In this document: piece by piece, positions 6,212-7,322 of the stretch | Numbering within the stretch: position 1 is the first letter of the stretch | Layout: each line of letters opens with the position of its first letter | Virus record (IMG/VR): IMGVR_UViG_3300046007_001549 | From: an uncultured virus (IMG/VR IMGVR_UViG_3300046007_001549) | Taxonomy: Duplodnaviria > Heunggongvirae > Uroviricota > Caudoviricetes | Reading direction: 5' to 3' (one strand) | Length of the DNA stretch: 20,000 nucleotides | Program-made: the position numbers and the translations under genes | The notes under the pieces: generated by a model | Database searches by the model: none | What the model was told of the DNA's origin: nothing | The model's input: only the letters and a program-made list of their open reading frames with translations

Positions 6212-7153
6212 ATGACAGATGAGACTCCAGAATTGGACATGCAGGAACAAGTCGAACAGACTGAGGCTGCGGTCAATGCGGAACAATCTCCAACTGCTAG
6301 TGAGCAGGATATTGTAACTGCGAGAGAACGAGCAGCCTTTGAGACTTATGTAAAATCTCAAGGTGTTGCTATTCCAGAAAACTTCAAGGATGTTGGATCA
6401 TGGTTCGACTCACTTAAAAATGCACAGAAAGCATATACACAGTCGCGTCAAGAAATCGCGGATCTTAAAAAGAAGTATGAGAAGTCAGGCGACAATCCAA
6501 ACTTCAAAGCTCCGACAGAAGATCCAAAGCCAGCAGCCAAAGAAGAAGAAGTAATCGCAGTCGATAAGCTGCAGATTCCTAAGCAACCAGAAAAGACAGA
6601 GCAAGCTCCCGTTGAGTACGCTGTTACTCAGGATGATTGGAAGTCTTGGACTGTTGAGTTTGCTACCAAGGGAGAACTGTCTGCTGAAACCAAGGAACAG
6701 ATCAAGCAAAAGACAAAGCTTCCTGATTATGTAATTGATGATTATATGACAGGTCAGAAAGCAAAGCTTGAGGTTGCCTATAAAAAGGCAGCAGATCTAA
6801 TTGGTGGTAATGACAAACTCAATAAGGTCTTTACTTGGGCTAGCAAGAATCTTTCTCAGACTGAGCAAGATGGAATTAACTCTGCACTAGCAACACCCAA
6901 TTGGGAAATTGCTTTGTTAGGACTAACGACTAAATACGAAAAGGCTAATGGAACTACAACTAAGACTAATGAGCCACCAGCAACAGGTAAGAAAGTTCCT
7001 GTATCTGCAACTCAGGTTCCAGCAACTGCTTATAAAACTAAGCGGGAATTCCAAGTCGAACGAAACAACCCACGCTTTATGACAGATGCCAAATATAGGG
7101 CAGCTGTTGAGAAGCGTATGTTAATGACGGACTTCACAAAACTAACTCCTTGA
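6212..7153 (+). CDS. Capsid scaffolding protein (T7 gp9-like)
   Basis: Acidic N-terminus, IPENFKD, GG......WA..NL and C-terminal NPRF..D..YR..V motifs, located between portal and capsid. Confidence 0.9.
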   Translation: MTDETPELDMQEQVEQTEAAVNAEQSPTASEQDIVTARERAAFETYVKSQGVAIPENFKDVGSWFDSLKNAQKAYTQSRQEIADLKKKYEKSGDNPNFKAPTEDPKPAAKEEEVIAVDKLQIPKQPEKTEQAPVEYAVTQDDWKSWTVEFATKGELSAETKEQIKQKTKLPDYVIDDYMTGQKAKLEVAYKKAADLIGGNDKLNKVFTWASKNLSQTEQDGINSALATPNWEIALLGLTTKYEKANGTTTKTNEPPATGKKVPVSATQVPATAYKTKREFQVERNNPRFMTDAKYRAAVEKRMLMTDFTKLTP

Positions 7154-7289
7154 GACAGGATTAGTTCTAATCTATTTTGTTATATGGATTAGCAAAACCC
7201 CCGGAAGGCAATGGTTGGCTTTCCATATAACAACTTAACTTAAAGACTCCAGAGGAATAATCTAATGGTTAAGCAATTTAATTGTCTCA
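7151..7289 (+). promoter_or_regulatory. Predicted structured RNA leader (multi-arm junction) upstream of the capsid gene
   Basis: Nested inverted repeats: TGAGACA 7151-57/TGTCTCA 7283-89; GATTA/TAATC 7159-72; perfect 12-bp TTGTTATATGGA 7177-88/TCCATATAACAA 7222-33; CTTAAC 7234-39/GTTAAG 7268-73. Confidence 0.65.
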
Positions 7290-7322
7290 TTTTTAACTCA
7301 TTCCTTTTTAGGAGAAAACACA

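Follow-up and report, generated by a model that had tools for sequence, protein, structure and literature searches.

The scaffolding protein of phage P22, gp8, is said to regulate its own translation, a finding credited to Casjens & Adams (1985) and Wyckoff & Casjens (1985), and scaffold autoregulation has reportedly been known from this one phage since 1985. Our literature searches found no defined RNA site for scaffold autoregulation and no description of the motif reported here. One preprint implicates the N terminus of the P22 scaffold in translational autoregulation (bioRxiv 10.1101/2022.12.13.520362). The locus described below, in a 20,000-nucleotide stretch of an uncultured virus (IMG/VR IMGVR_UViG_3300046007_001549; herein the window), would resemble P22 in having a signal where the scaffold gene begins, in feeding back on head assembly post-transcriptionally, and in the role proposed for the scaffold N terminus. 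It differs in that a defined RNA motif can be recognized, which covaries and recurs on the capsid message; in P22 the scaffold and capsid genes overlap, there is no capsid leader, and the loop has no copy.

The MS2 coat operator likewise places a small hairpin containing unpaired bases at a start region, and in the T4 gene 32 leader a pseudoknot likewise precedes a U/A-rich stretch and then the Shine-Dalgarno (SD) sequence; the loop of the window phage differs from these operators in sequence and geometry, its site is common to two genes, and its capsid copy lies far from the ribosome binding site (RBS). The T7 gene 10 leader is also a T7-like scaffold-capsid spacer with a strong SD, and it carries a phage promoter; unlike the window phage, which has the loop and no promoter there, it holds no stable copy of the loop.

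Among predicted RNAs, Fremin et al. 2023 (PMC10690425) place the candidates DNAVirus_231, _3706, _3823, _3864, and _5397 upstream of PHA00201 capsid genes. Like the leader studied here, these 43- to 80-nt RNAs were predicted from IMG/VR, lie upstream of T7-like capsid genes, and come from freshwater and marine samples; compared by description only, they are shorter than the ∼150-nt leader and cover intergenic DNA only. One of them may be the arm-3 hairpin described below. The word “scaffold” is absent from the main text of Fremin et al. 2023, and the main text of Weinberg 2017 (PMC5737381) mentions neither capsid nor scaffold. No Rfam 15 family reached its gathering score in the window (0) or in 20 related loci (0), a search that the first-pass annotation of this DNA had proposed; the best sub-threshold match in the window (freshwater-2; 19.7 vs. 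49.9 bits, E 0.83) is driven by the RBS. The matches across 12 T7-like loci were limited to one tRNA and one glutamine-II aptamer, both away from the motif. The RNA leader is real and uncatalogued.

The head genes and their transcript

The window phage is an uncultured T7-like phage with its genes in T7 order (exonuclease, dUTPase, ribonucleotide reductase, portal, scaffold, major capsid, and tail genes). It is Autographiviridae-like in combining a T7-like head and tail module with, in its relatives, a single-subunit RNA polymerase: PF00940 (T7-type RNA polymerase) is present in 5/5 near-complete relatives of 62 to 67 kb and was not found in the nearest record, which is 63% complete. No cultured phage comes closer than 29% at the window capsid, which is <30% identical to those of cultured Autographiviridae; a prophage search in GTDB for the host returned a single 34-residue match (E 4e-5). 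The scaffold assignment rests on PHROGs and tblastn, the Pfam PF05396 match falling under its cutoff. The transcription unit is bounded as follows:

1018 through 1033, + strand: candidate phage RNA-polymerase promoter, the last copy upstream of the head genes (putative function)
6212 through 7153, + strand: head scaffolding protein gene, 313 aa, T7 gp9-like (PHROGs 1052/1018; tblastn to T7 and relatives)
7323 through 8489, + strand: major capsid protein gene, 388 aa (PHROGs 267)
8564 through 8603, + strand: intrinsic terminator-like hairpin closing the unit (fold; a similar one follows the capsid gene in the 42 clusters listed)

The promoter-like motif (consensus ∼AATAGTTGGGGCTAYWGAWA; window 1018 through 1033 and G002 through G006) is kept across a family with 60 to 70% capsid identity. 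It occurs in three to five + strand copies (at most two mismatches) in each of five near-complete related records and lies 33 to 38 nt 5′ of the dUTPase gene in the window, G004, G005, and G006. There are zero copies at the scaffold or capsid gene, the scaffold-capsid spacer included; since the repeated motif differs from that of the spacer and is missing there, a phage RNA-polymerase promoter was rejected as the identity of the spacer motif. If the promoter-like motif is the late promoter, portal, scaffold, and capsid would lie on one transcript. The copy numbers of these three proteins differ greatly, and on a single transcript the levels of head proteins would therefore have to be set post-transcriptionally. 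Metatranscriptome contigs overlap the spacer in 3/4 RNA runs (as contigs only, showing neither ends nor strands), and one of them, X1, spans scaffold, spacer, and capsid at a depth unable to rank the genes; neither observation was used as evidence.

Several neighboring features were recorded in passing. The G004 record holds two slightly differing scaffold-capsid copies (L027 and L032), one at each end, and may be a chimeric or over-assembled contig. Three small lysine-rich ORFs lie 5′ of the scaffold gene (window 5677 through 6208; 101, 43, and 31 aa); one of them has a C-x-C motif, and the interval they occupy is a cassette whose content varies among relatives. A long hairpin in the 3′ UTR of the capsid gene (window 8490 through 8563) ends in AAGGAGGTGATCC, which we take to be the complement of the 16S rRNA 3′ end, with no start codon afterwards; ATCTA and the terminator follow, and the hairpin, seen in 14/42 clusters, often sits just behind a mini-ORF of five to six codons. 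The 1983-aa tail fiber gene (window 13392 through 19343) contains many internal repeats of the H-T-H and K-I/L-A-D-G-A-V-T types.

A pseudoknotted capsid leader

A search for homologous spacers gave 265 capsid hits, from which a scaffold-capsid spacer was obtained at 225 loci; 94 of the spacers are distinct, and they fall into 46 clusters. The clades used here derive from the spacers, because the capsid tree is unfinished and discordant with the spacer groups; this departure of capsid relationships from both spacer and scaffold groups suggests that capsid genes have been exchanged behind a retained leader. In the window, the interval 7140 through 7330 folds at −45.1 kcal/mol (z = −3.1), a value that 0/200 shuffles equal. 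Its parts are:

7140 through 7166, + strand: P1 hairpin spanning the scaffold stop codon (7151 through 7153), its loop carrying a pseudoknot strand (pair probability 0.69)
7151 through 7157, + strand: pseudoknot 5′ strand, in the P1 loop, pairing with 7283 through 7289
7177 through 7233, + strand: arm 2, with a 12-bp base, an AA/G loop, and a tip (7196 through 7216) with a C/CAAU 1x4 loop (C7200; 7209 through 7212); tip pair probability 0.99
7234 through 7273, + strand: arm 3, with a tip (7244 through 7263) bearing a C/AUAA 1x4 loop (C7247; 7257 through 7260); probability 0.64
7283 through 7289, + strand: pseudoknot 3′ strand, pairing with the P1 loop
7290 through 7314, + strand: U-rich linker and capsid SD (7310 through 7314), with a local hairpin at 7302 through 7313; in the MFE fold of the window, 7146 through 7150 of P1 is an alternative partner for the SD

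The first-pass annotation had read this region as three arms enclosed by a 7-bp closing stem. Every string that it quoted is present where it was placed, and arms 2 and 3 with both of their 1x4 tips are borne out, being formed in the window and both conserved and covarying in relatives. The closing helix pairs and covaries as well, in a topology other than the one proposed: because its 5′ strand lies in the loop of hairpin 7140 through 7166, the helix is a pseudoknot. The capsid leader is a pseudoknot enclosing two arms. Two further elements proved to be lineage-specific, namely arm 1 (7158 through 7173 in the MFE fold), which is lost already in the nearest distinct relative (L003), and the SD hairpin (7302 through 7313), found by eye in 3/18 aligned clusters. 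P1 spans or begins at the scaffold stop and is rebuilt from different sequence across clades. A nested model of the window, which cannot hold both elements, gives probabilities of 0.69 for P1 and 0.27 for the closing helix; in a window fold lacking P1, 7146 through 7150 pairs with the capsid SD at nearly equal energy.

Covariation in homologous spacers, whose absence had been named as a refutation, was assessed on an alignment of 18 clusters hand-picked as pseudoknot-bearing, in which the window row and two others are misregistered at the arm-3 tip. In these hand-picked clusters 86.9% of the cells are paired (79.6% in shuffles; ≤47% in slid controls), and double changes occur at 16/27 pairs vs. 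8.3 in shuffles, including 4/6 pairs of the pseudoknot helix. Across the wider set, the pseudoknot was seen by eye in ∼23/45 clusters and is absent from about half; an automated count gives 28/45, to be read against a permissive control of 37 to 38%. Another large group of clusters closes around arm 3 only.

The arm-2 tip forms (pair probability ≥0.1) in 26/46 spacer clusters and in 0% of shuffles. By a sequence rule, the arm-3 tip is present in 38/46 clusters vs. 24/2300 shuffles, and at a pair probability of ≥0.1 in just 13/46, as computed for the unbound ensemble. An independent DNA pattern for the arm-2 tip matched 118 stretches: 29 have arm 3 and a downstream capsid gene, 1 has arm 3 but could not be scored for want of flanking sequence, 1 has a capsid gene without arm 3, and 87 have neither. 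The two tips had been described as the same shape in different sequence. Their shape is indeed common, a long strand R-H-A-A-Y opposite N-C, and they are not two copies of one sequence: the arm-2 consensus is C/YAAU between G-C pairs, the arm-3 consensus is C/AHAA, and each is conserved separately.

Individual spacers depart from this plan. Six (L343, L341, L336, L338, L337, and L335) have unrelated sequence in place of arm 2 and retain arm 3, L182 retains arm 2 alone, and the spacer of L345 is 19 nt long. In L021, the arm-3 loop is replaced by an arm-2-like loop. In L015 (588 through 772) and its group, arm 3 bears an AGUA/GAA internal loop, presumably of the sarcin-ricin (loop E) type; the loop strand can alternatively form an 8- to 9-bp helix with a conserved stretch just 5′ of the SD, which excludes the site.

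The arm-3 loop at scaffold starts and in other phages

C7247 of arm 3 lies 76 nt 5′ of the capsid AUG, and its loop is the same module as one found at the start of the scaffold gene, where only the arm-3-type loop recurs:

6221 through 6290, + strand: scaffold-start hairpin, GAGA-C-UCC (6221 through 6228) with GGA-ACAA-UCUC (6280 through 6290), from the MFE fold
6245 through 6262, + strand: second, inner loop copy in inverted orientation (ACAA bulge), degenerate and lying inside this hairpin, seen by eye and of low confidence in the window

The window site has a C/ACAA 1x4 loop 10 to 17 nt inside the coding sequence; the closing-pair probabilities are 0.93/0.90 in G001. A second, inverted inner copy is present in many scaffold-start hairpins and is clear in L037, L239, L154, L010, L151, and others. 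The module occurs at the scaffold start in 38/42 clusters (the exceptions being L044, L338, L319, and L389) vs. 30/167 internal windows, and with a folding criterion in 31/42 clusters vs. 1.2% of shuffled sequences. It is found in either orientation, with inserts of 3 to 80 nt; one cluster carries a loop copy over the scaffold SD, and one keeps the scaffold site although its spacer is 19 nt. A scan of six records placed well-folded copies at the scaffold start in 6/6 (12 to 46 nt into the coding sequence) and in the capsid leader in 3/6, with seven others scattered; in two records a motif-like match also fell within the RNA-polymerase gene, and we attribute it to chance in the coding sequence.

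An alignment of 25 sequences shows 96.6% pairing at the scaffold start, and in 8 of them a C-G pair has become A-U. The peptide EQS is encoded as GAA CAA TC in 49/49 cases (EQ background in the same genes, 41/92) and ET[PQ] as GAG ACT in 40/43 (background in the same genes, 16/99), both sets of cases being related by descent. The synonymous codons are thus frozen, and the constraint acts on nucleotides. A conserved RNA structure in the scaffold initiation region, a feature expected of a P22-type operator, is present here.

A pattern written for the scaffold site matched 120 stretches, 68 of them within the scaffold family of the window phage. Six matches from outside it were checked, and lie in scaffold-like genes between the portal and capsid genes of a second podovirus group. 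A T7-type polymerase was found in 0/5 near-complete records of this group, and BLAST detected no similarity between its scaffolds and the scaffold family of the window phage. Here, the scaffold SD itself forms the 3′ arm of the loop hairpin, in 51/59 clusters vs. 14/1180 shuffles; 98% of the cells are paired, with 31 double changes vs. 7.4 expected from shuffling (28 sequences). The scaffold-capsid spacer of the second group is ∼20 to 30 nt long at five loci.

A third set comprises more distant T7-like phages. The pattern for the T7-like form matched 119 stretches, of which 83 lie upstream of a T7-like capsid gene at a median of −82, compared with a median loop-to-AUG distance of −83 in the family of the window phage. 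An inner stem of at least 4 bp is present in 52/52 capsid-linked matches vs. 2/23 others (75 with long flanks), and the 49 capsid genes long enough for comparison form 30 clusters at 70%. The loop lies 68 to 89 nt 5′ of the capsid AUG in 7 of the 12 named phage records whose capsid leader was inspected (HTVC309P, P-PSG-11, CRP-125, RHEph01, P-SCSP1d [a variant], SS120-1, and S30-C28), where its predicted pair probabilities are ≤0.02 for three and 0.7 for RHEph01. HTVC011P has a weaker form by eye, and T7, A7, P22, and Pf-WMP3 have no convincing loop. Ten cultured T7-like scaffold starts likewise lack a convincing loop, metagenomic T7-like scaffold starts have it in 3/16 vs. 6/64 controls (some starts being miscalled), and the P22 gene 8 start has no such loop with a pair probability >0.01. 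In the cyanophage SS120-1 (L724, 1497 through 1548), the long scaffold-capsid spacer contains a glutamine-II riboswitch aptamer above its gathering score.

Carriers of the motif span phages of alpha- and betaproteobacteria and cyanobacteria. To judge from the sequences compared, the arm-3 loop is a mobile module, widespread across phage groups, and probably a common control site balancing two head-building proteins. This provides a candidate, strongly covarying operator site in three phage groups, among whose cultured members are a pelagiphage, a roseophage, a rhizobiophage, and cyanophages, together with a candidate binding region in the scaffold protein.

Candidate readers of the loop

Tandem protein-binding sites for control of capsid/scaffold stoichiometry had been suggested for the two tips. 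Their being tandem copies of one sequence did not hold, as described above; a protein-binding site tied to the scaffold/capsid balance is strongly supported, on comparative grounds, by the recurrence of the loop at scaffold starts in two unrelated families. We read the loop as a putative translational operator because it is fixed on freely changing stems, occurs in both orientations, and is placed on the SD, as would be expected from known operators. Our main reading, to which we give a probability of about 45%, is that this operator is read by free scaffold protein, which would repress scaffold and tune capsid translation and, by analogy, generalize the autoregulation of P22. The scaffold is proposed as the reader because it would account for both positions of the site, through self-repression at its own start and a favoring of coat when scaffold is unassembled.

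The candidate binding region is an N-terminal block of the scaffold, P/A-x-K-F/Y...Y-x-x-L-E. By HMM score or pattern it is present in 7/7 site-bearing named phages and absent from T7, A7, P22, and Pf-WMP3 (0/4), which also lack the site; these 11 phages are non-independent. It is the sole region that aligns between the two scaffold families, weakly so (hhalign probability 5%, E 0.008), and four clusters keep the block while lacking the scaffold-start site. In an AlphaFold model of the scaffold (pLDDT 71, pTM 0.34), the block is a helical hairpin and coiled coil; Foldseek with this model gave no match at E ≤0.001, and the block has no recognizable RNA-binding fold.

In the scheme we propose for the scaffold as reader, the leader, an mRNA structure of two arms closed by a pseudoknot, would present its modular 1x4 loop to free, unassembled scaffold protein. 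At the scaffold start, binding would stabilize the hairpin inside the 30S footprint (window phage) or on the SD (second group), and scaffold would be repressed. At the capsid leader, we infer that binding would more likely favor capsid output, since the site, ∼80 nt from the AUG, is too far away for a ribosome block; the effect could come from holding arm 3 and the pseudoknot in a fold in which the linker and SD stay accessible, or from protection of the message. P1 would be melted by ribosomes completing the scaffold gene, which would add another input with the same sign. The net result would be a feedback matching coat to scaffold on one long transcript, with neither gene having a promoter of its own. 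The full generalization, that across T7-like and other podoviruses an RNA-binding element in the scaffold N terminus reads one C/AHAA loop, represses scaffold, and raises or localizes capsid through a pseudoknotted leader sensing the ribosomes that end the scaffold gene, is doubtful as a whole. If true, it would amount to a two-way post-transcriptional thermostat for head assembly and a new protein-RNA code. Control of the coat-to-scaffold ratio on a shared transcript in tailed phages becomes directly testable, and a small orthogonal protein-RNA pair would serve as a tool.

The predicted link between site and capsid RBS varies among clusters. Forcing the arm-3 site opens the capsid RBS by >0.5 kcal/mol in 14/38 clusters, closes it in 6, and leaves the window unchanged. 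In the family of the window phage, the 5′ strand of the tip pairs with its own RBS better than with those of others (p 0.0025 over 20 clades, 0.02 over 14; reversed control, ∼0.5), and tip:RBS complementarity is not above chance in 34 other T7-like leaders (p 0.40). A universal anti-SD switch was rejected on the absence of the signal from those 34 leaders; such a switch is at best a lineage-specific addition.

The module might instead work without any protein, as an architectural element, and here its resemblance to a known loop class matters. Its general form is 5′-R C N-3′ opposite 5′-N′ A H A A Y-3′; in C-loop register, the window has ACAAU*AC at the scaffold site, GCAAU*CC in arm 2, and AUAAU*AC in arm 3. 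According to PMC4551918, C-loops are architectural motifs, and the C-loop of 16S helix 15 (IL_73276.5) likewise sets R-[C/U]-A-A-U on its long strand against a short strand whose last base is C; the helix-15 sequences given there include ACAAU*AU and GCAAU*AC, and both tips are one or two substitutions away from those listed. Unlike C-loops, the phage sites keep one flanking Watson-Crick pair open (A.C in arm 3 and the scaffold sites, U.C in arm 2), which makes the loop 1x4, and their position 2 tolerates U and A. A C-loop is also marked by crossing non-Watson-Crick pairs (2/6 and 4/7). Its long strand N-C-A-(A/C)-U fits two sites of the window, arm 2 and the scaffold site, whereas position 2 is U in arm 3 and varies among C, U, and A in relatives; no site class has three extra long-strand bases between two Watson-Crick flanks. 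The tips are therefore C-loop-like and not members of the class, one flank being always open.

In such a protein-free module, the loop would tune helix twist or dock the arms, and the leader would act as a 5′ stabilizer, a processing boundary, or a ribosome standby platform; as a boundary or stabilizer, it would let capsid mRNA outlast scaffold mRNA. The nearness of both tips to helix-15 sequences fits this, as do a pseudoknot that starts exactly at the scaffold stop and a capsid gene without a promoter of its own. We consider it unlikely, because the module also sits in stand-alone hairpins of 7 to 10 bp, on the SD or in coding sequence and in both orientations, with no partner available for docking, and because it keeps unpaired a flank that canonical C-loops close. 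The specific suggestion of a processing signal fares poorly for RNase III. In sites of the T7 R1.1 type the duplex surrounding the loop extends over about two helical turns, and since many copies lie in 7- to 10-bp hairpins, an RNase III site is unlikely; only arm 2 of the window and the long scaffold hairpins have duplex enough.

Another phage protein could take the place of the scaffold as reader, most probably free major capsid protein damping translation of the head genes when unassembled coat builds up. The capsids of all three groups fall in PHROG 267 or are annotated as T7-like, the site is most widespread in capsid leaders, and in RNA phages the coat protein binds an operator. This is distinctly unlikely: repressing scaffold under a coat surplus would worsen the imbalance, and the capsid-leader site lies 60 to 108 nt from the AUG. 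The small basic proteins encoded 5′ of the scaffold gene, which had been put forward as binders, are unlikely readers because they are patchy: many clusters retain the site and yet lack them in the 1 kb preceding the scaffold gene.

A conserved host factor, such as a ribosomal protein or the 30S surface, would be an alternative reader if the loop mimics the helix-15 C-loop and thereby adjusts initiation at the head genes. The scaffold site and arm 2 of the window are each one base from a helix-15 sequence (ACAAU*AC from ACAAU*AU, GCAAU*CC from GCAAU*AC), and the breadth of hosts noted above would suit a conserved factor. It is improbable nonetheless, given that within a genome the motif is limited to two head genes, that it is absent from T7, A7, and P22, and that a host reader offers no feedback from head assembly.

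Scaffold protein might also bind the capsid leader for tethering, parked beside coat-making ribosomes for co-translational assembly of the procapsid. The fixed distance of ∼−80 in distant T7-like phages without an anti-SD relation and the display of the site at an arm tip speak for this; we hold it to be quite improbable, as the second podovirus group does without a capsid-leader copy, its spacer being ∼20 to 30 nt. A DNA-level signal (promoter or operator) or a peptide by-product has negligible probability, despite one sigma-70-like match at 7150 through 7178 and the recurrence of ETP and EQS in scaffold N termini, because sigma-70 matches are at chance level (4 vs. 3.6 shuffled) and a sigma-70 promoter was rejected on that count, the phage promoter is a different motif, and the halves of the module swap order and spacing, covary as base pairs, and have frozen synonymous positions.

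In four spacers (L367, L372, L387, and L393), the leader is reduced to a single hairpin that holds the loop twice, head to head, accompanied by an inverted copy at the scaffold start; this arrangement suggests a dimeric reader.
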